Source: Gammaproteobacteria bacterium
GTDB lineage: Bacteria > Pseudomonadota > Gammaproteobacteria > Chromatiales > Chromatiaceae
Direction of reading: 5' to 3'
DNA length: 64,000 bases
Assembly (NCBI GenBank): GCA_015490795.1
Contig: WFXD01000005.1
Coordinates: 4,690-68,689, forward strand
In this document: positions 8,250 to 56,265 of the stretch, piece by piece
Position numbering within the stretch: the stretch's first letter is position 1
Layout of the letters: each line of letters starts with the position of its first letter
Notes under the pieces: generated by a model
Databases searched by the model: none
What the model was told of the DNA's origin: nothing
Seen by the model: only the letters and a program-made list of their open reading frames with translations
Position numbers and translations under genes: made by a program

Positions 8250-8393
8250 TGTTTTTATTTTTTTGTTAAAGAGTGGTTGCCCTGCTTATATTAATATGGC
8301 ACTGACATGAAAAGCGCAATAGAAATGAAAAGCAGTAGCGGCTCTCCCTGCCAAATTTCAGCATATCTGAGAGGTTCTGCTTCTGAAAGAGCG

Positions 8394-8561
8394 CTAGGAG
8401 CCTGCCGGACTTAGGATGAACTGGCTGCGGAAGTGGGAGAGCGGCTCAAATATCCCCGGTTTTTCGTTGCGTAGACCCACTATGCGCCTCAAAACCGGGA
8501 ATATTTGCGCTCGCTCTCCCACTCCCTCGCTACAATCCACCTAAGTCCGACAGGCTCCTAG
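8394..8561. repeat. 168-bp imperfect palindrome (MITE / ERIC-like element or large structured RNA)
   Basis: The 22-nt ends ctaggagcctgCcggacttagg and cctaagtccgAcaggctcctag are reverse complements with one mismatch. Inner arms gtgggagagcg...ccccggtttt and aaaaccggg...cgctctcccac also pair. Intergenic. Confidence 0.7.
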
Positions 8562-8570
8562 CTCTTCCCT

Positions 8571-9365: not shown

Positions 9366-9565
9366 GGTTGCCTCGCTTTTGTCTCGTTTACTGGAATTAA
9401 AGGGTAGTTATCCCAAAGATTCAAGTGCTCTGCGGGGTGATTGATGGTGTTTTGTCAGCAAGGCATGTTGATTTTGAATTTATCAGTAGTATGCTTGTTT
9501 TATAGATTCGATACGAAAGTCAGCTGGCTGGAATCAATTTCAGGAAAATATAAAGGACCTATATC

Positions 9566-33004: not shown

Positions 33005-33062
33005 CCATACATATTAGGCTACTGTAACAACAGTTGTGTCTGATGGCAGAGAGGGAGGCTCG

Positions 33063-34766
33063 ATGTCGTTGCGATCCATTAACCGGCTGATCCAGCTTGG
33101 CTACCGTTTTGTCTACCGCTCAAAGGGGCGGTTTTACCTCTATCTGGCTTTTTTTTGCAGTATTCTGGTGGTGCTGGATGCCACCAGCTTCCATCTTGTT
33201 GCAGGCATGCAGCACCGCACCTTCGATATCATGATGAAAAACCGGATCATCTACCCCAAGGCGGACCCGGATATTGTCATCATAGATATCGATGAGGGCA
33301 GCCTGGAGGCGATGGCCGGGGATTACGGCCGCTGGCCCTGGCCCCGGCAGATATTTGCAGAGTTTGTAGAGAATCTGGAGGAGCAGCAGCCCAAGGCCAT
33401 CATCTTCGATATTCTGTTCAGTGACCCCGATGTCTACAACCAGGAGTCAGATGACTATTTCAATGAGGTCGCTGAATCCACAACCAATACCTTCTTTCCG
33501 ATGCTTCGGCTCAACCCCCAAAATGATAACCTCAGCCAGGTCACGCCAGCCATGATACCTGGCATGGGGCGTATCCCCGGCGAGCCACAGCAGGATCGAG
33601 GGCTGGCGGTTATTCTCCCCCATTTTCCGGCAGTGGTGGCAAGTGGGCGGATAGGCACCAACAACATCTACCCGGACAGCGATGGCATTGTGCGCCGGTA
33701 CGCACTCTACCGGCCACACTTTGGGTGGCGTATCCCCTCACTTCCAGCCCGGACGGCAGAGGTGCTTGGCTGGGAGCTGCCGGATGAGCAGGATGTGCTG
33801 CTGAATTGGCGTGGCCGCCTGGGGGCATTCAACACTGTTTGCTTTAGCACCGTGTATGAAGATTTTCTCAGTCGGAAGCGGCAGCGCCCGCAAGACGAGT
33901 TCACGGGTAAAGTGGTCATCATCGGCTCCAGCGCGCCCAGCCTGTTCGATACCAAGCCCACCCCGATGGAGCGTATCCATCCAGGCGTGGAGGTGCTGGC
34001 CACAGCCGTGGATAACCTTAAAAATGGTGATTGGATCACCTCGCTCTCCAGCCCCTGGATTTACGCTACCGTGGCGCTCAGCCTGATCTGGCTGGTGGCG
34101 CTGGCCTTCCTGACCGGCATCAAGCGCACCCTGATTGATGGCGTATTTGCCGGTTCCCAGGTGGGGCTGGTGGCGGTTTCGTATGCCAGCCTGAACCTCT
34201 CCACCTATTTTATCGACCTGACAGCGCCGATAACGGCGGGCTTTGTCTACTTTACGCTGGCGCGGGTCTACGCCTACGCCGAGGTGGCGCTGGCTGAACG
34301 CCGTGTCTGGCTAACCCTGGAAAGCGATGCCAAAGGGTGGCAAAACACCCTGGTGGTCGTCTTGCTTGGAAAGGAGGGTGCGCTATCGGAAAGCAAGGTG
34401 ATTACGGGGTTAAAGCGGCGACTCAACGCCAGAAAAGAGGGCTTTACCATTGAGGCATTTCCTGACAAGCCGGCAGGGATAGGGCGCGCCTATGGTGATC
34501 TGCTGCTGATCTATTATGTTGATAGTGAAGTCAGAGAAAAAACATCGCCAGAACAGATGGCTACAGAGCCGTTTCTGGAGATGATCAAGGAGGAGGCGAC
34601 AGCAGTTTGCGGTGCCATGCCGCCGCTGGGGTATAGCCAGGGCGCCATGCCGTATGGTGATGAGCATGGGCGAATAGAGGTGTGGCGCAGGCTGGTGCAT
34701 CAAGCCATTCACAGCCTGCATTGTGATGAAGGTGGGCGGGTGTTTGATGACAGGGGGGGTAGATAA
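33063..34766 (+). CDS. CHASE2 sensor-domain membrane protein without a recognisable output domain
   Basis: GAGGGAGG upstream of the ATG at 33063. DIVIIDIDEGSLEAMAGDYGRWPWPRQIF...IIFDILFSDPD is the CHASE2 signature. C-terminal TM cluster plus an unassigned cytoplasmic tail of about 170 aa. Confidence 0.85.
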   Translation: MSLRSINRLIQLGYRFVYRSKGRFYLYLAFFCSILVVLDATSFHLVAGMQHRTFDIMMKNRIIYPKADPDIVIIDIDEGSLEAMAGDYGRWPWPRQIFAEFVENLEEQQPKAIIFDILFSDPDVYNQESDDYFNEVAESTTNTFFPMLRLNPQNDNLSQVTPAMIPGMGRIPGEPQQDRGLAVILPHFPAVVASGRIGTNNIYPDSDGIVRRYALYRPHFGWRIPSLPARTAEVLGWELPDEQDVLLNWRGRLGAFNTVCFSTVYEDFLSRKRQRPQDEFTGKVVIIGSSAPSLFDTKPTPMERIHPGVEVLATAVDNLKNGDWITSLSSPWIYATVALSLIWLVALAFLTGIKRTLIDGVFAGSQVGLVAVSYASLNLSTYFIDLTAPITAGFVYFTLARVYAYAEVALAERRVWLTLESDAKGWQNTLVVVLLGKEGALSESKVITGLKRRLNARKEGFTIEAFPDKPAGIGRAYGDLLLIYYVDSEVREKTSPEQMATEPFLEMIKEEATAVCGAMPPLGYSQGAMPYGDEHGRIEVWRRLVHQAIHSLHCDEGGRVFDDRGGR

Positions 34767-35272
34767 TGAGAGTGATTCAATGGTTGATCTGCATCTTTTT
34801 AATGGTTGCTGCCGCACCACTGCTTGCGGAACCGGGGCATATCATTCGCCCCAGTGACCTGATGGATGAACCCTACCGGGATGCGGCCCCGCTGGCTGAG
34901 CTAAAGGCGGGCGACCCTGTAGAGATCATCAAGCGCAAGGGTGGTTGGCTGAAGGTCAAAAGTGCAGGCCGGACGGGTTGGGTCAGGATGTCTAAAATCC
35001 GCAAAGGCAAAGCGACTGCGAAACCGGCCTCAGGCAGTGAGGCAAAGGGGGTGTTGGATCTGGCCAGTGGCCGTTCGGGCACCGGCAATGTGGTTTCAGC
35101 CACCGGGGTAAGAGGGCTGAGCGAAGCAGAGCTGAAAGAGGCAAAATTCAGCGCCAGCGAGGTGGACAAGCTGGAATCCTTTACCGTTTCCGGGCAGCAG
35201 GCAGCCCGCTTTGCGCAAGCAGAAAAGCTGGTTGCAAAAGAGCTTGAATTTATCCCGGCGGCAGAGAGATAG
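34766..35272 (+). CDS. Secreted bacterial SH3-domain protein
   Basis: TAATG overlap with the CHASE2 gene. Signal peptide; LKAGDPVEIIKRKGGWLKVKSAGRTGWVRMS is an SH3b-like fold motif. Confidence 0.7.
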   Translation: MRVIQWLICIFLMVAAAPLLAEPGHIIRPSDLMDEPYRDAAPLAELKAGDPVEIIKRKGGWLKVKSAGRTGWVRMSKIRKGKATAKPASGSEAKGVLDLASGRSGTGNVVSATGVRGLSEAELKEAKFSASEVDKLESFTVSGQQAARFAQAEKLVAKELEFIPAAER

Positions 35273-35282
35273 GAGAGAGGCC

Positions 35283-36356
35283 ATGAGATTTAAACTGCTG
35301 TTAGCCCTGTTGCTGATAACAGGGACACCGCCTGCATACGCCTTTGATTTTGGCGGGTTGATCAAAGAGGCCACAAAGGAGCCTGAGCCGGTTTCGGGCA
35401 AAACCCCGCAGCAGGGCCAGCAGCCGGGTTTGATGGGGCTGTTGGGAGGAACTCCGGTAGAGGAGGAGATCGCCATTGGGCGTGAAATTGCAGGCCGGCT
35501 ACTGGGCGCTGCCCCGCTGGTAGATGACAAGCAGCTGCAACGTTACATCAACCATGTCGGTGCCTGGGTGGCCAGACAGAGTGGCCGCAATGACCTCAAA
35601 TGGTATTTTGGGGTGATTGAGTCTGATGACATCAACGCCTTTGCAGCGCCAGGCGGTTATATTCTGGTCACCAAAGGGCTGTATAAAAGGCTGCGTAACG
35701 AGGCGGAGCTGGCAGGTGTTCTGGCGCATGAGATCGGCCATGTTATCAAGCAACACCACCTGAAGATATTGAAGCAGGGGCAGTTGATTGATATGGGTGG
35801 CAGCCTTCTGAAACAGAAGGTGGGCGGTGGTGGAAAAGGCCAGGCGATTGGCAGGATGATCGGCAGTGGTGCTGAAATTCTGGCGCGGGGCCTGGATAAA
35901 AATGCCGAATATGAGGCGGATCGCATCGGTGTGGTACTGGCTGCAAGAGCAGGATATGACGCCTATGCCCTCCCCTCAGTGCTACAGGAGATCGGCCACC
36001 TGAGCGCGGATGACAACACGGTTTCGCTGCTGTTTAAAACGCATCCACACCCGGAAAAAAGGCTGCTGGAGCTGGGTGATGCCATGGATGCCCATGCCGA
36101 CCGATTCGAAGATGGCAAAATAGTTGCAGACAGATTTTACCGATTGGGGAAGGAGAAAAACCCCAGTGATGCGCGGCTACCCGGCTTTTTGTTGAGCGAT
36201 TTTTTTCAGGTGCCATACAGCGATAGCCATCCATGCGACATTGAGCATCAATGCACCCATTGCGCCCATGAACAGGGTGTTGATGCCAACCAGAAACGCC
36301 CCCGCCAGGTTGTATATATGGTAGGCAGCCGAGGTGTTGGTAAACCTCCCTTTTGA
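35283..36356 (+). CDS. Periplasmic M48-family zinc metallopeptidase
   Basis: Start MRFKLLLALLLITGTPPAYA with GGAGAG upstream. HEIGH zinc motif, EYEADRIG third ligand region. The last 60 codons or so overlap an antisense membrane-protein gene. Confidence 0.85.
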   Translation: MRFKLLLALLLITGTPPAYAFDFGGLIKEATKEPEPVSGKTPQQGQQPGLMGLLGGTPVEEEIAIGREIAGRLLGAAPLVDDKQLQRYINHVGAWVARQSGRNDLKWYFGVIESDDINAFAAPGGYILVTKGLYKRLRNEAELAGVLAHEIGHVIKQHHLKILKQGQLIDMGGSLLKQKVGGGGKGQAIGRMIGSGAEILARGLDKNAEYEADRIGVVLAARAGYDAYALPSVLQEIGHLSADDNTVSLLFKTHPHPEKRLLELGDAMDAHADRFEDGKIVADRFYRLGKEKNPSDARLPGFLLSDFFQVPYSDSHPCDIEHQCTHCAHEQGVDANQKRPRQVVYMVGSRGVGKPPF

Positions 36357-36946: not shown

Positions 36947-37648
36947 GTGCGTTGGATCAATAGAGGCGTCGTGCTGCTGCTGGGGTTTGTCATCACCACA
37001 GCAAGCTGGGGCCTTGAGTGGAACCAGGAGGGTGGAGAAAAAGAGCGGGCATTGACACTAAAACCCAACTACAACCGCGGGCTGGAGTTCTACCGCATCT
37101 GTGCAAAATGCCACAACAAGCAAGGTTGGGGGCGGCGTGATGGGTCATTTCCACAGATATCGGGTCAGCACTACAATGTCCTGATCAAGCAGCTTGTGGA
37201 TATGCGCGAAAACAACCGCGAAAATCCCTCCATGCAGCACTTTGTGATGCCTGAAGTGCTGGGCGATGCCCAGGCGCTGGCCGATCTCTCCTACTACATC
37301 TCCAAACTGCCCATGACCCCGGCAAACGGAAAGGGGCGGGGCAAGAACCTGGAGCGTGGTCAGGATATCTACATGGAGAAGTGCATTGGCTGTCATGGTG
37401 ACAACGGTGAAGGTGATAATGAGAAATTTTTCCCGCGCATCCATGGGCAGCACTACCGCTATATGCTGCGCCAGTTTAAATGGATAAGGGCCGGGGAGCG
37501 GCTCAATGCACATCCGGATATGCAGATTCGGATCGAGGACTTTACGCTAGAGGACTCCAAGGCAGTGGTTGACTATATTTCACGTCTGAAACCGCCAAAA
37601 GAGATTGTGGCGCCCTCAAGAAAGTGGAGAAACCCTGATTTTGAATAG
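36947..37648 (+). CDS. Dihaem cytochrome c4-type protein
   Basis: GGAGG 9 nt upstream of GTG 36947 (alternative start 36923). CAKCH and CIGCH motifs, each followed by a PxIxGQHY c4-type segment (FPQISGQHY, FPRIHGQHY). Confidence 0.85.
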   Translation: MRWINRGVVLLLGFVITTASWGLEWNQEGGEKERALTLKPNYNRGLEFYRICAKCHNKQGWGRRDGSFPQISGQHYNVLIKQLVDMRENNRENPSMQHFVMPEVLGDAQALADLSYYISKLPMTPANGKGRGKNLERGQDIYMEKCIGCHGDNGEGDNEKFFPRIHGQHYRYMLRQFKWIRAGERLNAHPDMQIRIEDFTLEDSKAVVDYISRLKPPKEIVAPSRKWRNPDFE

Positions 37649-37908
37649 CGCGCCTGAAACGCTTGCCATGTATGGACAAAGGTAGTGGATGAGCGCAAAA
37701 GCGGACGGTTTTGTTTCAGCCATATTGCACTCCCCGGTTTTGGCATATAAACACTTATAAAGTTTAGGTTATACTTGCCAGCTCCCAAGACGAGACAAAA
37801 ACCAGGTTGTGACGGGGCTGTAGTCCATGGGCAGGTTTGGATATTATACCAGCCGTGCAGGCGCCCTCTGAAATTTGCTGCGACGCTCTCTTAACCACCA
37901 AGAAGACA

Positions 37909-39063
37909 ATGAAGACCCAGATTGCCAACTGTTTGAAAATGAGCCTGAAAGCGCTCTCTTTTGCGCTGTTTTTGCCTCTCAATGGTGCCGTGGCAGAGGA
38001 GGCTGCCTGGCCCATGTTCCTGCTCAACCCGCAGCACGATGCCCAGCCTGCCTCCACTCTTGCGCCGCCACTGGAGCTGCTGTGGGAGTTTGACGCAGGC
38101 GATCTGCTCTACGCCTCTCCCGCTGTCGCCTCTGGCAAGGTCTTTATCGGTTCGCTCTCCGGTGCATTCTATGCGGTGGATCAAGAGACAGGCGAGCCAG
38201 TGTGGAGTTTTGAAACCGCTGACGAGATCACATCCTCCGCTGCTGTTGACAATGGCAAGGTCTACTTTGGTGGCAAGGATGGCACCCTCTACTGTCTGGA
38301 TGCCGCCACAGGTGAACTGATCTGGGAGTACAAGACCCAGGGCAAAATCGTCAACTCCCCTGCGCTGGTGGATGGCGTGGTCTACTTTGGCTCGAATGAT
38401 ATGAGCATCTACGCCATTAGCGCAGAAGATGGCGGCTTTATCTGGTCGACCCCTCTGGCTGAAAAACCCACCAGCTCACGAGGCATTTACGCCTCCCCCA
38501 CCATTGGCCACGGGCTGGTCTATGTAACGCGCAAGGCCTTCAAGGTCTATGCGCTGGATATCAGGGATGGACATATCGTATGGGAGTTCAGAACCCGCTC
38601 AGCCAACTATGCCTCGCCTGTGCTCAGCGGTAACACCCTCTACATTGGTGGCTATGATCGCAACCTGTATGCGCTGGATGCCAAGAGCGGAAAAACGAAA
38701 TGGCAGGCCACCGTAGATGAGTGGATCTATGCCTCGCCCATCCCCTTTCAGGATGGCGTACTGGTGAGCGCCAAAGATGGCGTGCTGACCTCATTCGATA
38801 GCGCCACGGGCAAGCTGCGCTGGTCGCAGGATCTGCGCGCCCCCATCAGCTCGACCCCGGCAGTAACCCGAAGCGGCATCGCCTTTGTGGCCAACGAATA
38901 TGGTGAACTGACTGCAATTGACGTGAAAAATGGCCAGCCTGTTTGGCAGGAGACACTGCCCGATGACGGGTTCCACTCCTCCCCGGCCATCGTGGGCGAC
39001 CGACTCTATATTGGCACCATGAATGGCTACCTGATGGCCTGGGAGCAGAGACAGATACCATGA
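37909..39063 (+). CDS. Secreted PQQ-like (BamB-like) beta-propeller repeat protein
   Basis: Signal peptide. Repeats of the type GKVFIGSLSGAFYAVDQETGEPVWSF / GKVYFGGKDGTLYCLDAATGELIWEY / NTLYIGGYDRNLYALDAKSGKTKWQ. Confidence 0.85.
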   Translation: MKTQIANCLKMSLKALSFALFLPLNGAVAEEAAWPMFLLNPQHDAQPASTLAPPLELLWEFDAGDLLYASPAVASGKVFIGSLSGAFYAVDQETGEPVWSFETADEITSSAAVDNGKVYFGGKDGTLYCLDAATGELIWEYKTQGKIVNSPALVDGVVYFGSNDMSIYAISAEDGGFIWSTPLAEKPTSSRGIYASPTIGHGLVYVTRKAFKVYALDIRDGHIVWEFRTRSANYASPVLSGNTLYIGGYDRNLYALDAKSGKTKWQATVDEWIYASPIPFQDGVLVSAKDGVLTSFDSATGKLRWSQDLRAPISSTPAVTRSGIAFVANEYGELTAIDVKNGQPVWQETLPDDGFHSSPAIVGDRLYIGTMNGYLMAWEQRQIP

Positions 39064-40013
39064 ACAGTAGCGTGTTGAGCTTTTTGCTGGGGCTGTTGCT
39101 CACCTTTGGTGCGGCGGCACAGGTAGTGGCCGAAGAGGATCTGAATATGAATCCTCACTGGTCCAAAACCAAAGACAAGTGCCTTGCATGCCACGAACAT
39201 ATTCCAGAGAGAGGCGGCCAGTTAAATCTCCGTTATGACGGCGATATAAACAGGCTCTGCAACCACTGCCACTCCGAGATATCCAAAGACAAGTATATCC
39301 ATGCCAGTGGCATGATTGCCCCGCAGACGATGGTGGACAAGATGCCAGAGGAGTTTCGCTCCGGGCTGGATGATGAGGGCCGCATCACCTGTGCAGTCTG
39401 CCATGACATGACCTACCAGTGCCTCAGTGAAGAGTTCGGGCGCAAAAAAGAGAACATCCTGTTCCACCGGGGGGCACCCTTTGAAAAACGAACCGACCTC
39501 TGTTACAACTGCCATGAGCCCTCTGCATATAAAAAGATGAATCCGCATGACCAGATTAACGATGAGGGAGAGCTGGACACCGACATCTGCACCTACTGCC
39601 ATGCCATCCTGCCTGACCGCCGAAAGGCTAAAAGCATTGCAGATGTTGAATTCAAATTTGATAATTTCGACATGCTCTGTCTACGCTGCCATACAGATGA
39701 TGCCTATGCCGTGGGCTGTGTGATTGGCTATGAAAAAGATGGCAGCCCCAGATACCATGCAGGGCGGCCCGATGAAGGGATGTCGGGCCGGATTGAGGCA
39801 AACCAGGGGGGAGCCATCCTGCCGCTGGATCTTGTCACGGGCAAAATCTTCTGCGGCACCTGTCACAACCCGCATGAGCTTGGGGTGCAGCGGCGCAGCG
39901 AAGCTGATGCGGGCGCCGACTCCCACAAGCGTTTGAGAATCAGCCAGATAAACTCGGGGATCTGCCTTGGCTGCCATGATGCCAAAGAGATCAAACAGTT
40001 CCACCTGCCATAG
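39060..40013 (+). CDS. Octahaem c-type cytochrome, secreted
   Basis: ATGA overlap with the propeller gene. Signal peptide. Eight CXXCH: CLACH, CNHCH, CAVCH, CYNCH, CTYCH, CLRCH, CGTCH, CLGCH. Confidence 0.9.
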   Translation: MNSSVLSFLLGLLLTFGAAAQVVAEEDLNMNPHWSKTKDKCLACHEHIPERGGQLNLRYDGDINRLCNHCHSEISKDKYIHASGMIAPQTMVDKMPEEFRSGLDDEGRITCAVCHDMTYQCLSEEFGRKKENILFHRGAPFEKRTDLCYNCHEPSAYKKMNPHDQINDEGELDTDICTYCHAILPDRRKAKSIADVEFKFDNFDMLCLRCHTDDAYAVGCVIGYEKDGSPRYHAGRPDEGMSGRIEANQGGAILPLDLVTGKIFCGTCHNPHELGVQRRSEADAGADSHKRLRISQINSGICLGCHDAKEIKQFHLP

Positions 40014-40020
40014 ACCGTCC

Positions 40021-40998
40021 ATGATACAGCGTTTTACCGCCCCTCTCCGGCCCTGCTTCCAGCAGAGTGGATGGCTGCTTGTGCTGGCTGCCCTGCTGCT
40101 CCCTGCCCAGCCGATTGCCGCTGCCCCGGATCTGCTCCCTGTCGAGCAGATCCGGGTCATTGAGGGTGGCGACAAACTTGGCCTGCGCCAGCCGAGCAGC
40201 GTACGGATCACCTCAGACAACCGCACCCTGGTGCTGGACGGCGTCTCAAACCGGGTTGTCATCTACAACCACGAAGGAAAATTCCAGGGCAGCTTTGGCA
40301 AAGGTGGCAGCGCAAAAGCGGAGCTCAGCCGCCCGCTGGGGATGACCCTCGATGCCAGGGATCATGTTTATATCGCCGACTCCGGCAATGCCCGTATCCA
40401 GATCTACAGCCCAGATGGCAAACATCTCAACCAGATCAAACTTCCCCAAAGCAAGCAGCAAAAAAGGCCCGACCCCACCGACCTGGCCATCGACAACCAG
40501 CGCCAACTGCTCTACGTGGTCGATAATGAAAACCACCAGGTGCTCGTCTATAGCCTGAAAGAGCGAAAATTCATCCGCACTGTGGGGGGGATGAGCCATC
40601 AGGAAGACGGCTTCCGCTGGCCCTTCTCCCTCTACATCGACGCCACCGGCAGGCTCTACATCGTCGATGTCATCAACACCCGGGTGCGCACCATCCTGCC
40701 TGAAAAGGGGTTTGGGTTTGGCCATGATATTGGCCGCTGGGGGGTCGAGAAGGGTGAGCTGTTCCGCCCCAAAGGGGTGGCAGTCGATGCCAGTGGGCAT
40801 ATCTTTATTAGCGACTCCTACCTCGGCGTCATCCAGATGTTCGACAAAAAAGGGAGATTCCAGGCCGTGCTCAGCGATGGTCAGGGCAAGATAAAGCACT
40901 TTACCACCCCGGCCCGGCTCTATTTTGACAACAACGGCCTCCTCTATGTGGTGGAGATGTTCGCCAACCGTATCAGCGTCTACCGTATCAAATCATGA
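40021..40998 (+). CDS. Secreted NHL-repeat six-bladed beta-propeller protein
   Basis: Signal peptide LLVLAALLLPAQPIAAAP. NHL-like blades (LSRPLGMTLDARDHVYIADSGNARIQIYSPDGK, FRPKGVAVDASGHIFISDSYLGVIQMFDKKG, and others). Confidence 0.85.
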   Translation: MIQRFTAPLRPCFQQSGWLLVLAALLLPAQPIAAAPDLLPVEQIRVIEGGDKLGLRQPSSVRITSDNRTLVLDGVSNRVVIYNHEGKFQGSFGKGGSAKAELSRPLGMTLDARDHVYIADSGNARIQIYSPDGKHLNQIKLPQSKQQKRPDPTDLAIDNQRQLLYVVDNENHQVLVYSLKERKFIRTVGGMSHQEDGFRWPFSLYIDATGRLYIVDVINTRVRTILPEKGFGFGHDIGRWGVEKGELFRPKGVAVDASGHIFISDSYLGVIQMFDKKGRFQAVLSDGQGKIKHFTTPARLYFDNNGLLYVVEMFANRISVYRIKS

Positions 40999-43900
40999 AG
41001 CAGTTGAGACTGGTTGGGCTTTTCCTGTTGCTGCCCCTGCTTTTGGCATCCACAGCAGCTGTTGCGGCCCCTTCAGGCCAGCAGCCCAATGCCTCGAAAG
41101 AGTGCGCCATGTGCCACCTGCGCTGGGTCGATGATTTTGATGGCAGCCATGCCGCAAACTACCTGCTCGATTTTACTGAAGAGAAGGTCGTAGCCACAGA
41201 GATGATGTGCTACAGCTGCCATGACGGCTCGATCGTGGACTCCCGCTTGCGGGTGTGGGAGACCAGCCGGCACAAGGCAGGGACAGACCCATCCAGCAAA
41301 ATCACGATTCCCGAGACCTTTCCGCTTGATCCACAAGGGCGGCTGACCTGTGCAACCTGCCATAGCGCACACGGTGTCGACTCAACGACCGACATCGGAT
41401 CGACCATCTTTTTGCGAGTGCCCAATGTCAACTCATCCATGTGCCGCCAGTGTCACAGTGACAAGGATGACGGCGTGGCAGCGGGCAAGCATCCGGTCGA
41501 TATCGTTTTTGATGAATTCCCACAAAAGATCCTCGATTTTGGCGGCAAGGCGGGCAAAGACAAGAGCGGCAAAAAGAGGACGGTTATCTGTGAAAGTTGT
41601 CACAATCCGCATGGCAGCACCAACGACCACTTTCTGGTAATCCCGAACAGCCAGAAGGGGGTAACCCACTCCAGCCTGTGTGAAACCTGTCACGGCGTCT
41701 CGCCGGATATTAAAAGTGCGGATGAGCTGCGGCGGTTTTCGCACCCGGTGGATGTGGATATTATCAAAGAGGTCAAACTGCCAGAGAGGTGGGATAACGG
41801 CGAAAGACCACTGCTGGCCGAAGGCCGGGTGATTAACTGCCGCACCTGTCACTCACCGCACAACGGCACGCGGGATAACCACCTGCTGGTGTCGAGCAAC
41901 AAACAGAGCAAACTCTGCCTGACCTGTCATACCTCGAAGAAAAAGCTGCTGAACACCAAACATGACCTGTCGACCAGCTTCCCCGATGAGAGGAACTCGG
42001 CAGGCCGGAGCGCAGCCGAGGCCGGCCCCTGCTTCTCCTGCCATTTTATGCACAAAGGAGAGGGGCCAAAGATGTGGGCGCGGGATATCGAGGGCGAAAG
42101 CATTGAGGATCTGTGCAAAAGCTGCCACGACAAAGAGAGGGTCGCAGAGCATGCCCTGACCGGCGCGCGCAGCCATCCGGTGGAGGTGCCCCCTTCCAGA
42201 AATATGGATGTGGGCAATCTGCCGCTCTATAGCGAACAGGGAGAGAGGCGCGCCGATGGTAACGTGACCTGCGCCTCCTGTCACGATCCTCATGTCTGGT
42301 CGGCATTGTCGGACGACCGGGGAGACAAAGGGGTAGAGGGCGACGGCACAAACAGCTTTCTGCGCCAGACGGCCGCACCACCCAGCGGTAGCCTCTGCCA
42401 AAGCTGTCACCGGGACAAAAAGCGCATCGCAAAAACCAAGCATGATCTGAATGTTACAGCGCCGAACGAAAAAAATGCCAGGCAGCAGACGCCAAAAGAG
42501 TCCGGGGTCTGTGGTGCATGCCATACAGCACATAACGCCAAGGCGGGCAAGCTCTGGAACAGGCCGCTGGGTGCAGGCGAGGATTATATCGAGCGCCTCT
42601 GCACCTCATGCCATGCCAAAGCGGGCATGGCCGCAGACAAGACAACGGGCAAGAGAAGCCACCCTGTTGGGGTCAAGCCAAAAGAGAGTGGCGACCTGCC
42701 GCTGTTTACGGCAGATGGGAGAAAGAGCGCCCGGGGCAATCTCTCTTGTGGCACCTGCCATGACCCTCATCGGTGGGCTGCGGGCAGTGATGAGCGTGGT
42801 GACAGCAAGGCAGAGGGTGATGGCAGCAACAGCTTCCTGAGAAAAACCAGCTCGGTCGAGAGCGAGCTCTGCCGCACCTGCCATGCCGAGAAATCGACCC
42901 TGCTGGGCAGCAAGCATGATATGCACGTCACCTTCCCCAAGGCCCGCAACAATCAGGCTCAAACCATTGGGCAGAGTGGCGTCTGCGGCATCTGCCATGT
43001 GCCACACAATGCAGATGGCAAACGGCTCTGGGCGCTGCGGCCACACAAGGTGGAAGACCCCTACGAAACATTGTGTCTCTCATGCCATGCAAAAGGCGGA
43101 ATGGCTGAAAAGAAGACGACAGGCTCCATTACCCATCCGCTGGGCAAGCAGCCCAATATGCAGCCACAGTTCCGAGGCAAGCTGCCGCTGTTTGACAAAG
43201 AGGGCAAACGGGATGACGAGGCGGGCACGGTCTCTTGCCCCACCTGCCACAACGTACACCAATGGGACCCCCGGGTTACCGAAGAGCAGACATCTCGCGG
43301 CAAAGGGCGGGAAGGCGACCGTAACAACAGCTTCCTGCGGGTCCCCTATGATGAAGATGCCACCCTCTGTGCAGCCTGCCATAAAGATAATGCACTGGTT
43401 ATTGATACAGACCATGATTTGCGTATCACCTCCCCGAACACTGTCAACCTGAGTCACGAAACAGTGGACGATGCAGGTGTCTGTAGCGCCTGCCACCTGG
43501 TGCACAATGCATGGGGTAACCTCCTGTGGGCACGAGGGGTTGGTGTGGGCAGCAGCCGGAATCAGGCGTTATGCACAGGCTGTCATGCCCGGCGTAAATC
43601 AGCGAGCAGAAAGGTGATCGGTGAGCCGACCCACCCCATGAAACGGATCGCAGATGCGCGGCCCACACTGCGCAAGGAGGCGCGCAGATTCTACAGAAAA
43701 AAACGTGGAGAAGAGGCAGCGCCAAAGGATGAAGCGGTGAAGCTGCCGCTCTTCACAAAAAATGGCGAGCAGTCAACAAATGGCGATATGGCCTGCTCAA
43801 CCTGTCACAACGTACACCGTTGGGATCCTGAAAAGCCAGAGAGAGGGCCAGGCAAAAAAACAGAAGGTGATGCAGGCAACAGCTTTCTGCGCAAATCCAA

Positions 43901-44672
43901 CCTGGATGGCCCAAAGCTGTGCGTGACCTGCCATGCCAGCAAGGGCTATGTTGTGGGCACAGATCATGACCTCTCCATAACCAACCCCGACGCCAAAAAC
44001 GGCCTGAACAAGACTGTAGCAGAGAGTGGCGTCTGTAGTCCGTGCCATGTCCCGCATGGTGCGAAAGGTGAGGGCTATCTGCTATGGGCAAGAGAAGAGG
44101 GGGAGGGGAGCAATCTGCATCAGGAACGGATCTGCCTGAGTTGCCATGAAAAAGGCGGGCCGGGAGAGAAGAAGATCGTTGAGCACTTTTCTCATCCGCA
44201 ATCAATAATAGTTCCAGAGCTGCACCGTCCGGGCAGCAGCAAATATGCGCCGGTTTACAATGTAGCGGGGCAAAAGGTAAATGCGGGGCTGATTGCATGC
44301 CCAACCTGCCACAACCCGCACCAATGGACCTCAAGCAGAAAGAGCACGGGCCCGGGGAAAGAGGTGGAAGGCAACAACAGAAACAGCTTTCTGCGGTTTA
44401 AAAGCTCAGGAAATATCTGTAGAAATTGCCACGGTATCGACAGCTTGCAGCGCTATAAATATTTTCACATGGATGATATCAGAGCCTCAGACCGAGCCGC
44501 CCGGGGCAGAGCGTCGGCAGGCGCGGCAACCAAACCGCCAGCAAAAGAGAGCCTGCCGGCAAGCAGGCCTGTGATGCAGGGGAGGGGCGAGCGCAGAGCC
44601 CCCAGCATGTCAGAGCGCCGTCGGGCGCTTATGGAGCGACGTTATCAAAAAGAGATGGGCACAGATCCTTAG
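40995..44672 (+). CDS. Giant secreted multihaem c-type cytochrome (28 CXXCH motifs, 1225 aa)
   Basis: ATGA overlap with the NHL gene. Signal peptide. I counted 28 CXXCH: 7 N-terminal, five tandem 4-haem modules each ending EGDxxNSFLR, and 1 more. Basic, apparently disordered C-terminal tail. Confidence 0.9.
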   Translation: MKQLRLVGLFLLLPLLLASTAAVAAPSGQQPNASKECAMCHLRWVDDFDGSHAANYLLDFTEEKVVATEMMCYSCHDGSIVDSRLRVWETSRHKAGTDPSSKITIPETFPLDPQGRLTCATCHSAHGVDSTTDIGSTIFLRVPNVNSSMCRQCHSDKDDGVAAGKHPVDIVFDEFPQKILDFGGKAGKDKSGKKRTVICESCHNPHGSTNDHFLVIPNSQKGVTHSSLCETCHGVSPDIKSADELRRFSHPVDVDIIKEVKLPERWDNGERPLLAEGRVINCRTCHSPHNGTRDNHLLVSSNKQSKLCLTCHTSKKKLLNTKHDLSTSFPDERNSAGRSAAEAGPCFSCHFMHKGEGPKMWARDIEGESIEDLCKSCHDKERVAEHALTGARSHPVEVPPSRNMDVGNLPLYSEQGERRADGNVTCASCHDPHVWSALSDDRGDKGVEGDGTNSFLRQTAAPPSGSLCQSCHRDKKRIAKTKHDLNVTAPNEKNARQQTPKESGVCGACHTAHNAKAGKLWNRPLGAGEDYIERLCTSCHAKAGMAADKTTGKRSHPVGVKPKESGDLPLFTADGRKSARGNLSCGTCHDPHRWAAGSDERGDSKAEGDGSNSFLRKTSSVESELCRTCHAEKSTLLGSKHDMHVTFPKARNNQAQTIGQSGVCGICHVPHNADGKRLWALRPHKVEDPYETLCLSCHAKGGMAEKKTTGSITHPLGKQPNMQPQFRGKLPLFDKEGKRDDEAGTVSCPTCHNVHQWDPRVTEEQTSRGKGREGDRNNSFLRVPYDEDATLCAACHKDNALVIDTDHDLRITSPNTVNLSHETVDDAGVCSACHLVHNAWGNLLWARGVGVGSSRNQALCTGCHARRKSASRKVIGEPTHPMKRIADARPTLRKEARRFYRKKRGEEAAPKDEAVKLPLFTKNGEQSTNGDMACSTCHNVHRWDPEKPERGPGKKTEGDAGNSFLRKSNLDGPKLCVTCHASKGYVVGTDHDLSITNPDAKNGLNKTVAESGVCSPCHVPHGAKGEGYLLWAREEGEGSNLHQERICLSCHEKGGPGEKKIVEHFSHPQSIIVPELHRPGSSKYAPVYNVAGQKVNAGLIACPTCHNPHQWTSSRKSTGPGKEVEGNNRNSFLRFKSSGNICRNCHGIDSLQRYKYFHMDDIRASDRAARGRASAGAATKPPAKESLPASRPVMQGRGERRAPSMSERRRALMERRYQKEMGTDP

Positions 44673-44774: not shown

Positions 44775-46733
44775 ATGCCTGATCATATCCCAGCCATTGA
44801 GGTGATCCAGGGGCCATCGGTTACCGCAGCCCCTCAGCGCAGCCTGCATGGGCGCAGGTCGCGGCGCCTCTGGGTATTCCTGATCGTATTTCTCCTGTGT
44901 GCCGCCGCCGGGCTGTTTTATACCTACTCCCGGCCTGCGGTCTATCGTACTACAGCCGCCCTGTTAACGGTCGCCATGCCAGCGGTGGACCAGCAGGGCG
45001 CAGCAGCAGACATCCAGCATGTCGCTATCCAGAGCCAGCTTTTGCTGGGCCAGCCCCTGTTGCAAGAGGTGCTGGAGAGGCTGGAGCAGGGAGGCGGCTT
45101 TCGATATATCAACAGCGTTGCCCAGCTACAGGGGATGCTCTCCGTTGAGCCGCTTAGCGATACCAATATTGTCAATTTGAGTGCCGAAGGGCCGATCCCG
45201 GAGGCGCTGCCCGCCGTGGTAAACACCTGGGTGAATGTCTATCTCGAAATGCGCGCCCGGAAGATCAAAGAGGCCACCGGCACAACGACCCAGGCCCTGA
45301 AGGAGCAGCATCAGGCCCTTGCGGCCAAGGTTGAGACCAAGCGCGCCGAACTGGACAGGTTCCGTCAGGAGCACGACATCCTAAGCATGGGGCGCGATGA
45401 AAACCAGGTTCTTGCCCGGCTGAAGGGGCTGACCCAGGCGCTCAACGCCGCCAGTGAAGAGGAGGTAAAGGCAAAGGCGGCGCTGGAGACCATTCATAAA
45501 GCCATCGCCAAGGGCAAACCTGTGGTTCCCAGAGATGAGCAGAGAAGCCTGGCGGCGCTGGAGTCCCGCGCCCAGTTGCTCAAAGAGAAGCTGACGGCGC
45601 TGCAACGCCGTTATACCGACGCCTTTATCGCTATCGACCCCAATCTCAAGACCATTCCCAAACAGCTGAAGGAGATTCAACAGGAGATCAAAACGAAGGT
45701 TGAATATGGCCGGAAGACGGTGCTGGCCGATGTGGAGCAGAAATGGGCGATTGCACGGCAATCGGTAGCAGAGTTGCAGGCCCAGCTGAAGGGGCATAAA
45801 AGCAAGGCAACCCTCTTTACCGCGCGTTTTGCCGAACATGAGGCGCTACAGGAGGATCTGGCCCGCCTGGAAGAGCTCTACCGCACCACCGAGGAGCGCT
45901 TGGTGGCGATCGAGGTGCAGAATCGGCAGAAGTTCCCGCAGGTCAATATACTGGAGTATGCCCAGCTGCCTGCTCACCCGGTGCGGCCGCAATATACGCG
46001 TGATGCTGCTATCGCCCTGGTGGCATCGCTGCTGACAGCGCTGTTTGCCGTCTGGCTGGTCGAGTTTCTTTTGCGCAAGGAGAGAAGGGATGAACCCCAG
46101 ACCCTGGCAGGCCTGCACCTCTACACCGGGCAGCAGCGACCAGCCATAGACCCACCGGCTCCAGTCGCCGCCATCAATGGGCAAGCGCATACTGCACTGC
46201 CACAGCCGGCAGGCACAGAGCTGGATATGGAGGAGATCCGGCAGCTGTTCGAGCAATCAGACACCATTGGACAACAGCTGATTGCACTGCTGCTGAGCGG
46301 ACTGACCCTGGAAGAGGTGGCCAGGATAGAGCGATGCTGTTTCGACTTCAAAGAGAGCAGGCTTCGGGTGCCTGGATATCAGGAGCGGGCCATCACCCTG
46401 GCGCCATCGGTTTTGAAGCTCTTTGCCGAAATTGAACCTGCCCCTGCCAATGAAGAGCTGGAAATCGCGACAACCTCCACAGCGGAGCTAGTGGCAAAAA
46501 TCACACTGGTGGCGGTAGATGCCGGACTCAGCGAACCGGAACGGATAAATGCTCAATCCCTCCGGCACAGCTATCTCACCTATCTGGTGCGGCAGGGGAT
46601 AAAGTTGTCTGAAGTGAACAAAGTTGTGGGTGGCATATCAGCAACGCAGCTTGCCGCCTATGCACAGCTGTCGCCGGATGGCCCCGGCAAACCCCTGGAA
46701 GAGATCGACCTCGTCTACCCGTTGTTCAGATGA
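44775..46733 (+). CDS. Polysaccharide co-polymerase (Wzz/GumC-like) membrane protein fused to a degenerate tyrosine-recombinase-like C-terminal domain
   Basis: TM1 LWVFLIVFLLCAAAGLF, a long periplasmic coiled-coil region, then TM2 AAIALVASLLTALFAVWLVEFLL. Cytoplasmic tail has LLLSGLTLEEV...RAITLAP...SLRHSYLTYLVRQGIKLSEVNKVVGGISATQLAAYAQL. Confidence 0.7.
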   Translation: MPDHIPAIEVIQGPSVTAAPQRSLHGRRSRRLWVFLIVFLLCAAAGLFYTYSRPAVYRTTAALLTVAMPAVDQQGAAADIQHVAIQSQLLLGQPLLQEVLERLEQGGGFRYINSVAQLQGMLSVEPLSDTNIVNLSAEGPIPEALPAVVNTWVNVYLEMRARKIKEATGTTTQALKEQHQALAAKVETKRAELDRFRQEHDILSMGRDENQVLARLKGLTQALNAASEEEVKAKAALETIHKAIAKGKPVVPRDEQRSLAALESRAQLLKEKLTALQRRYTDAFIAIDPNLKTIPKQLKEIQQEIKTKVEYGRKTVLADVEQKWAIARQSVAELQAQLKGHKSKATLFTARFAEHEALQEDLARLEELYRTTEERLVAIEVQNRQKFPQVNILEYAQLPAHPVRPQYTRDAAIALVASLLTALFAVWLVEFLLRKERRDEPQTLAGLHLYTGQQRPAIDPPAPVAAINGQAHTALPQPAGTELDMEEIRQLFEQSDTIGQQLIALLLSGLTLEEVARIERCCFDFKESRLRVPGYQERAITLAPSVLKLFAEIEPAPANEELEIATTSTAELVAKITLVAVDAGLSEPERINAQSLRHSYLTYLVRQGIKLSEVNKVVGGISATQLAAYAQLSPDGPGKPLEEIDLVYPLFR

Positions 46734-53843: not shown

Positions 53844-54767
53844 ATGGCAGGCACAGATCGCGTCCAGGTTAACCAATCCACCCTGATCGGACTGCAAAAG
53901 GCAGGGGCTTCACTGCCGCTCAGGGCGGTAAAGGTTCTGGGGCGCATGACGGGCAGCTACCTCTCCAGATTTAAAGGCCGGGGGATGGAGTTCGATGAGG
54001 CCCGCCCCTATCAGCCCGGTGATGATGCACGCAATCTCGACTGGAAGGTGACAGCGCGCACTGGCAAACCCTTCACCAAACTCTTTAGAGAGGAGCGTGA
54101 GCGCTCCATTCTGCTCTGGGTGGACTACCGTGCGCCCATGCACTTTGCCACTCGTGGCCTCTTCAAATCGGTGCTGGCGGCCAGGACGGCGGCACTGCTG
54201 GCCTGGAGCGCCATCCAGCACGGTGACCGTTTGGGCGGGCTGATCTTCTCGGAGGGCAACCATCTGGAACTGCGGCCCCAGCAGGGCAAGCATGCGGTGC
54301 TGAACTTTATCCGCAAGCTCACGGATGCATCGCCACAGAGCGCCCCCAAAAATGGCAATGGCGCCCAGCAGCAGGTGGCTCAACGGGCGCTGGCCCGCCT
54401 GCGCCGGGTCACCCGTCCGGGCAGCCTGCTCTTTTTGCTGAGCGACTTCCGCTCGCTGGATGAGTCTGCAGAGGCGCACCTGATACACCTGGCGCGCCAC
54501 AACGATGTTGTGCTGATCTTTATTCACGACCATCTGGAGAGGGCGCTGCCCCCGTCCGGCAACTACCGCCTCACGGATGGCCGGCGCACCATCACCATCG
54601 ACACCGGCAGCCGCGCACTAAAAAAGCGGTATACCGAGCGCTTCCAGACCCATGAGGCCTGGCTGCGTGATCTCTGCCGGCGTGCAGGCATCCACCTGCT
54701 GAGCTGCGCCACGGACCAGGATCCGTACAGCATGCTGCAAGCAGGCCTTGGCCGGAGGCGCAGGTGA
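53844..54767 (+). CDS. DUF58-family (VWA-like) protein, MoxR partner
   Basis: GMEFDEARPYQPGDDARNLDWKVTAR is the DUF58 signature. Alternative TTG start at 53811. Confidence 0.85.
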   Translation: MAGTDRVQVNQSTLIGLQKAGASLPLRAVKVLGRMTGSYLSRFKGRGMEFDEARPYQPGDDARNLDWKVTARTGKPFTKLFREERERSILLWVDYRAPMHFATRGLFKSVLAARTAALLAWSAIQHGDRLGGLIFSEGNHLELRPQQGKHAVLNFIRKLTDASPQSAPKNGNGAQQQVAQRALARLRRVTRPGSLLFLLSDFRSLDESAEAHLIHLARHNDVVLIFIHDHLERALPPSGNYRLTDGRRTITIDTGSRALKKRYTERFQTHEAWLRDLCRRAGIHLLSCATDQDPYSMLQAGLGRRRR

Positions 54768-55273
54768 GCCCGGCCACACAGCAGCCTCTGCCGCTCAGGG
54801 ATATCCACCTGCCAGAGCCGGTCTCCTGGTGGCCACTGGCACCGGGCTGGTGGGGGCTGGCTGTTTTGATCCTGCTGCTGGTTGGGCTGCTCTTTTTGGG
54901 TCGCGCCCTCTACCGCCGCGGCCAGCTGCGCCGGGAGGCGCGCCAGGCGCTACAGGCGATAGAGAGCCGATACAAAATCCACCAAAATGATCAGCAGCTG
55001 GCAGCCGACCTCTCCACACTGCTGCGGCGGGTGGCGCTCAGCTGTTCACCCCGGGCAGAGGTTGCCGGCCTGACCGGTGATGCCTGGCTGGATTTTCTGG
55101 ATCGCGGCGTGGCAGGCAGCCGTTTCCACAAGGCATTCTCCACCGGCGTTGGCCGCGCACTGGTTGAGGCCCCCTACAGGGCTGCTGTAAAGATAGAGGG
55201 CGCTGCCCTGCTCAAGCTGTGTGCCGCATGGGTTGAGGCCCTGCCCCATAAACCGGAGGGCTCCCAGGCATGA
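54764..55273 (+). CDS. DUF4381-like single-TM protein of the Bat operon
   Basis: GTGA overlap with the DUF58 gene; GGAGG upstream. IHLPEPVSWWPLAPGWW followed by a TM helix. Confidence 0.7.
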   Translation: MSPATQQPLPLRDIHLPEPVSWWPLAPGWWGLAVLILLLVGLLFLGRALYRRGQLRREARQALQAIESRYKIHQNDQQLAADLSTLLRRVALSCSPRAEVAGLTGDAWLDFLDRGVAGSRFHKAFSTGVGRALVEAPYRAAVKIEGAALLKLCAAWVEALPHKPEGSQA

Positions 55274-56265
55274 TGACGCTCTACTGGCCCTGGCTGCTCG
55301 CCCTGCTGCCGCTGCCGCTGCTGATCAGGTGGTTCATGCCTGCTGCCCCCCGGCAGCAGGATGCGGCCCTGCGTGTCCCTTTTCTGGAGGATTTTGAGGG
55401 TGGCGGCGAAACCACGGGCAGCAGACCCCGGCAGGATATACTGCTCTGGCTGGCCGCTGCTGCCTGGGTCATGCTGGTGCTGGCAGCGGCGCGCCCCCAG
55501 TGGCTGGGTGACCCGCTGGAGATACCGATGAGCGGGCGTGACCTGATGCTGGCAGTGGATCTCTCCAAGAGTATGGAAGAGGAGGATTTCAGGCTTGCCA
55601 ATCAATGGGTCGACCGTCTGACCGCGACCAAGCAGGTTGCCGGTGATTTTATCAAGCGCCGCAAGGGTGACCGCATCGGCCTGATCCTGTTTGGCGAACA
55701 GGCCTACCTGCAAGCGCCGTTGACCTTTGACCGGGAGACGGTAAAAACCCTGCTGTACGAATCGGCTATCGGCCTGGCGGGCAGAAGTACCGCCATTGGT
55801 GATGCCATTGGTTTAGGGATAAAGCGGCTGCAAGACCGCCCGGCTGAAAATCGGGTGCTGATCCTGTTAACCGACGGCGCCAACACGGCAGGAGAGATTG
55901 AGCCTGTCCGCGCTGCTGAACTGGCGGCGCGGAAGCGGGTAAAGGTCTACACCATTGGCATCGGCGCCGATGAGCTGATTGTCCGCTCCTTTTTTGGCAG
56001 CCGGCGCATCAACCCCTCGCGTGATCTGGATGAGAAAAGCCTCAAGGCCATTGCCGATAAAACCGGCGGCCGCTACTTCAGAGCCAGGGATATCAATGAG
56101 CTGAAAGGGATCTACCGGCTGCTGGACGAGCTGGAGCCGATTGAGCAGGAGCAGCAGCTGTTCCGCCCCGTTCGAGCACTCTACCCCTGGCCACTGGGTG
56201 CTGCACTGATACTTGCCGGCCTGGTTATCGGCTGGCGCAGCGGATGGAGGCCAAACCGTGGATAA
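55270..56265 (+). CDS. VWA-domain membrane protein (BatA-like)
   Basis: ATGA overlap. N-terminal TM. MIDAS DLSKSM; LLTDGANTAG. Confidence 0.85.
   Translation: MMTLYWPWLLALLPLPLLIRWFMPAAPRQQDAALRVPFLEDFEGGGETTGSRPRQDILLWLAAAAWVMLVLAAARPQWLGDPLEIPMSGRDLMLAVDLSKSMEEEDFRLANQWVDRLTATKQVAGDFIKRRKGDRIGLILFGEQAYLQAPLTFDRETVKTLLYESAIGLAGRSTAIGDAIGLGIKRLQDRPAENRVLILLTDGANTAGEIEPVRAAELAARKRVKVYTIGIGADELIVRSFFGSRRINPSRDLDEKSLKAIADKTGGRYFRARDINELKGIYRLLDELEPIEQEQQLFRPVRALYPWPLGAALILAGLVIGWRSGWRPNRG

Follow-up and report, generated by a model that had tools for sequence, protein, structure and literature searches.

NHL-repeat beta-propellers encoded beside multihaem cytochromes (MHCs), with or without a porin, have been reported in four lineages, namely, in the Uet clusters of Tenderiales (10.1101/2022.05.06.490989), in Desulfovibrio ferrophilus IS5 (PMC5815863), in Dethiobacter (PMC10376724), and in Gallionella (PMC10734462). 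Here, we describe an operon of four genes, A–D, that encodes two propellers and two MHCs and occupies positions 37909–44672 (forward strand) of a 64,000-nucleotide (nt) stretch of DNA from a gammaproteobacterium of the Chromatiaceae (assembly GCA_015490795.1, contig WFXD01000005.1, positions 4,690 to 68,689); this whole stretch is referred to as the window. A previous sequence-only reading had concluded that the operon fits no recognised architecture, which, given the four reported lineages, was too strong. The locus represents an undescribed family and is a partial paralogous copy, within a known kind of system, i.e., modular multihaem conduits with propeller accessories.

The Uet system (uetABCDEFGHIJ) is a proposed extracellular electron uptake system of 'Candidatus Tenderia electrophaga' and Tenderiales (10.1101/2022.05.06.490989), found also in Gallionella (PMC10734462). 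It consists of the undecahaem UetJ, the tetrahaem UetA, the 28-strand barrel UetC, the trihaem c7 proteins UetD/E/G, the cupredoxin UetF, the peptidyl-prolyl isomerase UetB, and the NHL proteins UetH/I. Both Uet and the window operon are sets of operon-encoded MHCs and NHL propellers in chemolithoautotrophic Gammaproteobacteria; Bat genes are found in the window, as they are beside Uet; and a second form of the larger clusters related to the operon (loci L045, L056, and L067, see below) contains parts of the kinds represented by UetA, C, H, I, and J. However, the undecahaem, tetrahaem, and trihaem c7 cytochromes, the cupredoxin, the isomerase, and the barrel are all absent from the 64-kb window, which retains the NHL component only, while descriptions of Uet include no BamB/PQQ-like propeller, 24–28-haem cytochrome, or FdnI-type cytochrome b. 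With most of the defining genes absent, the operon was set apart from Uet by description; the larger system is possibly related to the Uet family, as judged by the analogy of parts.

PCC3 (He et al., 2017, PMC5566968) is a four-gene unit of a porin, one extracellular and one periplasmic MHC, and an inner-membrane protein (IMP). The periplasmic MHC has a median of 21 haems (21, 24, or 27 in Gallionellaceae), and the IMP has five transmembrane (TM) helices, two WX3HX13H motifs, and SGXXG (PMC5566968). Likeness here is seen in a very large repetitive periplasmic MHC, proposed to span the periplasm, an inner-membrane haem b protein of ~300 amino acids (aa), a large porin, and overlapping hosts (Sulfuricella, relatives of vent symbionts). 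The D protein of the operon has at least 21 haems, is repetitive, and has a low number of aa per haem, which is a resemblance in kind rather than a sequence comparison with Slit_0867–0870. On the other hand, PCC3 has no propellers, the window has c4, A, B, C, and D only, and the D-type locus of Gallionellaceae has no adjacent porin or extracellular MHC. Among 42 cytochrome-b-like proteins of related loci, WX3HX13H is seen in none and SGXXG in one. Assignment of the larger cluster to PCC3 was rejected on these inner-membrane motifs, on the porin-less Gallionellaceae locus, and on the difference in cluster content.

The Mtr-type systems (MtrCAB/MtoAB/PioAB) similarly combine a periplasmic multihaem wire with an outer-membrane barrel, and in the related clusters the gene of B lies near that of the barrel, as mtrA does near mtrB, but there are no propeller partners in Mtr systems. 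Membership was rejected, as B and D score 30.3 and 112.1 bits, respectively, with the DmsE/MtrA-family decahaem model (TIGR03508, cut-off 192.2 bits) and have 8 and 28 haems, not ten. An adjacent MtrB/PioB-type porin was rejected as well: there is no barrel candidate in the window, and the barrel candidates of the paralogous cluster have no Pfam family. The Cbc-type quinone–cytochrome modules of Geobacter (CbcL and its relatives) combine an FdnI/HydC-like cytochrome b with multihaem c. The module of a 6/7-haem cytochrome, an FdnI-type cytochrome b, and a membrane 3-haem cytochrome that accompanies many relatives of the operon is similar in kind, by composition only; it is absent from the window, which has a c4-type cytochrome instead.

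The NHL/multihaem clusters of D. ferrophilus IS5, DFE_0448–0451 and DFE_0461–0465 (PMC5815863, PMC9769857), the role of which is itself unproven, resemble the operon in the co-expression of NHL propellers with several large MHCs, in the absence of a beta-barrel, and in propellers proposed to stabilise a complex; by description, they differ in belonging to a sulfate reducer from another phylum and in having neither a PQQ/BamB-like propeller nor c4. OetABI of syntrophic sulfate-reducing bacteria and Geobacter, with the periplasmic OetA, the porin OetI, and the extracellular lipoprotein cytochrome OetB, but no propellers or cytochrome b (PMC10553843), was set aside on its described architecture alone. 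In the incompletely searchable literature, we found no description of a BamB/PQQ-like propeller with an octahaem cytochrome, of an NHL propeller with a 24–28-haem cytochrome, or of a swap between c4 and cytochrome b.

The four genes and their products

Gene A (37909–39063, 384 aa) encodes a PQQ-like/BamB-like propeller; gene B (39060–40013, 317 aa), an octahaem c-type cytochrome with ~40 aa per haem; gene C (40021–40998, 325 aa), an NHL-repeat propeller; and gene D (40995–44672, 1225 aa), a 28-haem c-type cytochrome with ~44 aa per haem, all on the forward strand. The A/B junction, CCATGAAC, and the C/D junction, TCATGAAG, both show an ATGA overlap; B and C are separated by 7 nt (the stop codon of B ends at 40013, the ATG of C is at 40021). 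Independent gene calls on public contigs give the identical four genes (384/317/325/1225 aa). The exact counts of CXXCH are 8 in B and 28 in D, 36 haem motifs altogether, with no CX3CH, CX4CH, or CXXCK variants in either protein; all four reading frames and all 36 motifs are intact. The N-termini of A–D, read from the sequence, have Sec-type signal peptides (a hydrophobic core, then AVA/E, VVA/E, IAA/A, and AVA/A, the slash marking the predicted cleavage) and no lipobox. The four coupled genes with their coordinates and junctions, their order, supported by Pfam as well as by the haem motif counts, and the Sec-type signals are thus as the sequence-only reading had described them.

A scan for promoters and terminators, with counts not clearly above the shuffled expectation, yielded one weak promoter-like site (37748–37775) and no convincing terminators between the operon genes; co-transcription of A–D is suggested because the genes overlap. 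All NCBIfam equivalog models score below their cut-offs with A–D, and the Pfam matches are generic (haem motif, propeller). By these searches and by those for relatives given below, none of A–D belongs to any characterised or named family, in agreement with the earlier suggestion that the set may be uncharacterised.

Protein A matches Pfam PQQ_2 (E 2e-56) and Beta-prop_ACSF4 (E 3e-60) and, by homology, is a secreted eight-bladed PQQ-like/BamB-like beta-propeller, the predicted partner of B. In PDB, A comes closest to BamB and to designed propellers of the PQQ type; weak similarity is seen to pyrroloquinoline quinone (PQQ) dehydrogenases and tetrathionate hydrolase (E ~1e-15). Two specific candidates were rejected: the BamB assembly factor, with which A shares the fold class (190.8 bits with TIGR03300, cut-off 285.2; no lipobox), and a PQQ-dependent dehydrogenase (118.8 bits with the alcohol dehydrogenase model TIGR03075, cut-off 480.05; 384 aa versus ~570–600 aa; only blade-structural conservation). 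Protein C matches NHL (PF01436, E 2e-27, 94.2 bits, cut-off 20) and, in PDB, the NHL domains of TRIM71, Thin, and TRIM2 (E 7e-31 to 1e-27), with weak Pfam matches to SGL/lactonase families; again by homology, it is a secreted six-bladed NHL-repeat beta-propeller, the predicted partner of D. A and C show no relationship by sequence.

The conservation of both propellers was assessed in 25 A and 32 C orthologues adjoining their cytochrome, considering residues kept in at least 90% of the set. In A, these are G/W/P/Y blade positions, and in C, NHL blade motifs of the D-x-x-N type; no conserved cluster of Cys, His, or acidic residues (Glu) is seen among the orthologues of either. As the conservation is purely blade-structural, a scaffold role is favoured over an enzymatic one, and both propellers look non-catalytic and compatible with docking. 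Of the two roles proposed earlier for the propellers, the docking one hence fits, and the catalytic one is disfavoured.

Cytochromes B and D match only the generic paired-CXXCH and c7/c3 models of Pfam (Paired_CXXCH_1/Cytochrome_C7). In D, an N-terminal region with 8 haems is followed by five tandem 4-haem modules of ~160 aa with mutual identity of 34–47% and then by a basic low-complexity tail of ~75 aa; compared to its 24-haem orthologues, D has an extra 4-haem unit (haems 23–26). Self-comparison of the sequence, with its tandem modules, shows D to be built as a long modular wire-like protein. B aligns with two D-type 4-haem modules (E 3e-11), and this alignment marks it as paralogous to two such modules in D. 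At 90% identity, the B family falls into ~126 clusters, all without a name; an exhaustive profile search of 50%-identity clusters gave 234 of them at E ≤ 1e-30 and 1346 at E ≤ 1e-3, including proteins of 1000–2000 aa built of the same module. For D, 542 relatives were found at E ≤ 1e-20; their annotations read 'hypothetical' or 'cytochrome c3 family protein' throughout, and almost all of them come from metagenome-assembled genomes (MAGs) or metagenomes. Relatives P0285 and P0289 from a 'Deltaproteobacteria' MAG have 2047–2090 aa with the same 4-haem module and, by extrapolation, would carry many more haems than 28.

A sequence search for solved relatives of B and D yielded marginal matches only. 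The AlphaFold model of B (predicted local distance difference test, pLDDT, 73.7) has no significant fold neighbour in PDB by Foldseek, although this is a weak test, haem-free multihaem models being mostly loops. For the 8 haems of B, 7 conserved distal-ligand candidates are seen in 20 family members (H33, H81, H163, H233, H272, M85, and M95); one haem may be five-coordinate, or its ligand may be supplied from elsewhere.

A gene with two CXXCH motifs (36947–37648, forward strand; 233 aa from the GTG at 36947) ends 260 nt upstream of A. Its product matches solved cytochromes c4 over both domains (1etp, 2.9e-14; 6q2u, 8e-14; 1h1o, 3.5e-13; also 8uf3; E-values range to 1e-12), and this similarity identifies it as a true c4-type dihaem cytochrome, in the place where the earlier reading had put one.

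Conserved pairs and the paralogous ten-gene cluster

Gene neighbourhoods were surveyed in 80 related loci from species-representative genomes, using a crude caller of open reading frames (ORFs) and phmmer, hence the counts are approximate. An A-type propeller directly precedes B in 25 of 57 B genes, and an NHL propeller directly precedes a giant D-type gene (at least 16 haems) in 33 of 51. Given this adjacency and a tandem A-B-A-B-C-D arrangement in a Chromatiales MAG (L014, 6372–14832), which implies duplication of the pair as a unit, the propeller–cytochrome pair (A–B, C–D) is, on the evidence of gene order, a conserved unit. The pairs recur, but usually inside a larger cluster.

The commonest larger cluster consists of ten genes, encoding an NHL lipoprotein (with the lipobox ...LTGC in L088), a 4-haem cytochrome, a ~600-aa haemless protein, A, B, a 7-haem cytochrome, a cytochrome b of ~310–340 aa, a TM-bearing 3-haem cytochrome, C, and D (18 or 24 haems). 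In the second form (L045, L056, L067), genes 1–4 are swapped for those of a 4-haem cytochrome, an NHL protein, a ~670-aa protein, another NHL protein, and an 11-haem cytochrome, followed by B and further genes. Shorter layouts have the genes of a 6-haem cytochrome, a cytochrome b, and a 3-haem cytochrome followed by B, C, and D (L009 and L011, with a 241-aa cytochrome b) or by A, B, C, and D (L012, a sister clade). The order c4, A, B, C, D, as in the window, is seen in L007, and c4, A, B, with the contig ending after B, in L008; c4 is kept directly upstream of A in both (489 and 493 bits) and occupies the slot of the 6-haem/cytochrome b/3-haem module of L012. In the MAG of L007, where the B orthologue is 90% identical to that of the window, the C and D orthologues (6189–10896) are each split in two ORFs, by a frameshift or an assembly error.

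In the 37 loci for which 18 kb or more of sequence was available, NHL is present in 34, cytochrome b in 32, a D-type gene in 28, a barrel candidate in 19, and an A-type gene in 18; the cytochrome-b module is found in 27 of the 28 well-flanked loci carrying D. The cluster cytochrome b matches Pfam Ni_hydr_CYTB (FdnI/HydC type) and has about four hydrophobic segments; the 3-haem and 7-haem cluster proteins have TM segments as well. In Gallionellaceae, Sulfurimicrobium, and related bacteria, two to three tandem or divergent copies of the module (6/7-haem, FdnI-type cytochrome b, 3-haem) are seen in L020, L030, and L051 (whole loci) and in L092 (1780–9869); the gene order suggests that the membrane module is itself a swappable cassette. 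The nearest named relatives of the window are MAGs labelled Sedimenticola, Ca. Polarisedimenticolaceae, and Chromatiales, and the wider cluster is hosted by sulfur- and iron-oxidising Proteobacteria and by Thermodesulfobacteriota.

The ~600-aa and ~670-aa haemless proteins have no Pfam match but are homologous to each other (hhalign probability 99.1%). They have signal peptides, C-termini such as ...RRDF and ...FGWRL, 21–32 amphipathic beta windows compared to 11–20 in shuffled sequences, and no TM helix. The secondary structure in the AlphaFold model (from a shallow alignment of 12 sequences) is a signal helix followed by ~28 long strands, and all 50 of the 50 Foldseek matches listed are outer-membrane barrels (LptD, BcsC, FimD, PelB, porins). 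Taken from this secondary structure and from the class of the matches, not from the model geometry, the ~600-aa protein is probably a large outer-membrane barrel with ~28 strands, of an undescribed family.

As noted earlier from the sequence, the 64-kb window contains no barrel candidate and no MtrA-class decahaem cytochrome; nor does it contain a cytochrome b akin to that of homologous clusters. This had been taken to indicate a stand-alone architecture without a porin or a membrane partner, which is not supported: relatives embed the pairs in a cluster with a probable barrel and a cytochrome b, and a full cluster is found in the same MAGs. The finding named in advance as decisive against the sequence-only reading, an orthologous locus always accompanied by a known porin, is thus closely approached, but the barrel family is undescribed and is present in only 19 of the 37 loci.

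The window matches contigs of the MAGs GCA_015488385.1, GCA_015485195.1, and GCA_027045995.1 and of the REYS20-1 metagenome assemblies, at 99.7–99.96% identity; by the study label, REYS20-1 presumably denotes samples of hydrothermal deposits from Brothers volcano. A complete ten-gene cluster lies on another contig of two of these window-bearing MAGs, GCA_015488385.1 (L088) and GCA_015485195.1 (L087); it was located via the barrel candidate of a sister MAG, by homology search followed by exact-sequence look-up. A second copy in the window's own MAG was not found via B-family proteins, the best matches being 58–60% identical. The identity between the window proteins and their full-cluster paralogues is 30% for A, 43% for B, 36% for C, and 38% for D. 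By sequence comparison, the window operon is a diverged and presumably functional partial paralogue of the ten-gene cluster, with six of the ten genes missing. The oddity of the locus, i.e., the missing porin and membrane partner, is largely explained, as the rest of the genome supplies a likely pore and a cytochrome b. The same is seen in the other lineages with c4-A-B: the MAG of L007 also holds a full cluster with a barrel candidate (L032), and so does the MAG of L008 (L033).

An independent link between the window and the full-cluster contigs comes from an intergenic near-perfect palindrome of ~167 nt, resembling miniature inverted-repeat transposable elements or repetitive extragenic palindromes. 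There is one copy in the window (8393–8559) and one in each of the five full-cluster contigs L087–L091 of the same species group (95–97% identity), between the NHL-lipoprotein and 4-haem genes; none of the 89 other loci contains the palindrome, and a search of Rfam gave no meaningful match.

The ratio of nonsynonymous to synonymous substitution rates (dN/dS) between the window and L007/L008 is 0.05–0.14 for c4 and A–D at dS ~1, with 0.05–0.07 for c4 and 0.06 for B. The window copy is under purifying selection and is not decaying.

Proposed mechanism and rival explanations

We consider, at a probability of about 0.5, the operon to be the soluble periplasmic core of a modular multihaem conduit, paralogous to the ten-gene cluster, with a c4 link and a borrowed barrel; the physical complexes, the wire geometry, the direction of electron flow, and the sharing of the barrel are what we infer here. 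D would act as a long periplasm-spanning wire. Scaled from MtrA, with 10 haems over ~8–10 nm (the corresponding length figure is ~100 Å in PMC5566968), it would reach ~20–28 nm if extended, about the width of the periplasm. B would be a shorter adaptor cytochrome, possibly associated with the barrel, as A and B come after the barrel gene in full clusters. The propellers, non-catalytic and matched 1:1 with the cytochromes through translational coupling, would dock, orient, or help assemble them.

Cytochromes c4 give electrons to cbb3-type oxidases, and a c4-type cytochrome belongs to the iron-oxidation chain of Acidithiobacillus ferrooxidans. In the window copy, c4 would replace the cytochrome-b module, so that the wire would be joined to the soluble high-potential pool of cytochrome c and a terminal oxidase, not to the quinone pool, to which the paralogous full cluster would lead. 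At the outer side, the window copy would rely on the paralogous cluster for a barrel complex. Electron uptake is weakly suggested as the likelier direction, since most of the host lineages oxidise sulfur or iron.

Several observations weigh against this model. The binding of A to B and of C to D is predicted from gene pairing only, and there is no oxidase gene next to the operon. Cross-use of the barrel is uncertain, because the window proteins share only 30–43% identity with their paralogues. The full-cluster contigs differ from the window in GC content (0.50–0.51 vs 0.556), with a tetranucleotide correlation of 0.85–0.91, and are assigned to the same genome because of co-binning in two MAGs and the shared repeat. 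The barrel model has low confidence (pLDDT 37.6, TM score ~0.17). Further, with a barrel candidate in only 19 of the 37 well-flanked loci and none near the D-type locus of Gallionellaceae, the unit of D and cytochrome b may often, to judge from these neighbourhoods, work without an outer-membrane partner.

The last observations lead to the most serious alternative, which we regard as possible but rather unlikely: a self-contained periplasmic system without any outer-membrane link, where B and D serve as an electron reservoir (capacitor) or a relay between enzymes and c4 or the oxidase, and the propellers are scaffolds. The window without a barrel or a membrane partner fits it, as do A–D, all predicted to be soluble and having no lipobox, and the many related loci, those of Gallionellaceae included, without a barrel candidate; besides, porin-less clusters of MHC and IMP were judged unlikely to act in extracellular electron transfer by He et al. 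(PMC5566968). However, a full cluster, barrel candidate included, accompanies the window layout in all three lineages that have it, A and B directly follow the barrel gene in the full clusters, and a linear protein with 24–28 haems is far bigger than a soluble shuttle requires. It is improbable that B and/or D are secreted and build a cytochrome matrix or a nanowire, extracellular or at the surface, in which the propellers would serve as modules for adhesion or anchoring. D does have very densely packed haems and a repetitive sequence, as have the PCC3 cytochromes proposed to be extracellular (PMC5566968), cytochromes of the D. ferrophilus NHL clusters, predicted to be periplasmic, were recovered from the outer-membrane fraction, and a gene of an MshE-type secretion ATPase lies ~5 kb upstream; but reading the sequences of A–D revealed no lipobox, no sorting signal, and no known motif for secretion, the upstream MshE, CHASE2, SH3, and M48 genes are not kept with the operon in L007, and the position of D beside the inner-membrane cytochrome-b module in 27 of 28 loci points to a periplasmic, membrane-proximal role.

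Even less credence is given to propellers as enzymes, A being a PQQ-type dehydrogenase or similar to tetrathionate hydrolase and C a lactonase/SGL-type protein, with electrons passing from a periplasmic substrate to B and D. The weak similarities of A to PQQ dehydrogenases and tetrathionate hydrolase and of C to SGL/lactonase families would agree with this, as would the 7 conserved distal-ligand candidates for the 8 haems of B. Yet A is a bare 384-aa propeller with 118.8 bits against the 480.05 of TIGR03075 and with BamB and designed scaffolds as the best matches, and the 25 A and 32 C orthologues show blade-structural conservation only, with no conserved Cys/His/Glu cluster. Finally, the partial gene content, with six of the ten full-cluster genes missing, and the C and D orthologues each split in two ORFs in L007 might suggest that the operon is a redundant, decaying duplicate that has no separate function. 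This is highly improbable and was disfavoured already, given the intact 36 haem motifs and four frames, the dN/dS of 0.05–0.14 at dS ~1, the layout kept in three species-level lineages, and the 4-haem unit gained by D.

The reading as a modular conduit with a c4 link may be carried further, although speculatively and with low confidence. The propellers may be dedicated sockets, obligate 1:1 partners of the octahaem and 24–28-haem wires, the pairs then being interchangeable blocks of a widespread, hitherto unrecognised family of trans-envelope conduits with an inner end at either quinone (via cytochrome b) or oxidase (via c4); the window copy would be a hard-wired path from the surface to the oxidase, bypassing quinones and parallel to the quinone-linked copy of the same cell.

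Other window genes and implications

Gene E (44775–46733, forward strand) starts 102 nt downstream of D, consistent with the Wzz/PCP-like gene placed there earlier. Its Wzz/PCP-like part, of the chain-length-determinant type, has two TM segments and a sub-threshold match to an XrtA-system determinant; fused to it, the C-terminus has a degenerate XerC/XerA-like tyrosine-recombinase fold (PDB 4a8e, E 6e-5) retaining the LRHS..T motif and the terminal Tyr. As no homologues of E are seen in the 80 related loci, it is placed outside the cytochrome system. Upstream of the operon, at 33036–36356 (forward strand), a tight trio encodes a CHASE2-domain protein, an SH3-domain protein, and an M48 peptidase; it is present in all six same-species contigs (L001–L006) and absent upstream of the operon in L007. 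At 274–5757 (reverse strand), there are genes of a molybdopterin oxidoreductase exported by twin-arginine translocation, an NrfD-type membrane subunit, a 4Fe-4S protein, a NapC/NirT-type pentahaem cytochrome, and a monohaem cytochrome c; this redox cluster looks like a complex of the Psr/Ttr/alternative complex III type. The Bat genes of the window (BatA, BatB with vWA and TPR, and BatD types) occupy 54764–59814 (forward strand). In Tenderiales, Bat genes lie directly beside Uet, and a role in surface attachment was suggested for them there (10.1101/2022.05.06.490989).

Electrons of lithotrophs have to cross the periplasm (~20–30 nm) on their way between the respiratory chain and mineral or electrode surfaces, for which structural detail is available only for Mtr-type systems. 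The unnamed family described here has hundreds of clusters in sulfur and iron oxidisers from vents, sediments, and groundwater, and includes single polypeptides that would be long enough to span the periplasm, each having a propeller of its own as partner. The two paralogous copies in one genome, one linked to cytochrome b and the other to c4, represent a natural experiment. If the pairs are not complexes, the result is still useful, as the locus is not an orphan but part of a larger cluster with a probable porin; if they are true complexes, they would define a new principle by which biological wires are assembled, and their genes would serve as markers of extracellular electron uptake where lineages are uncultured.

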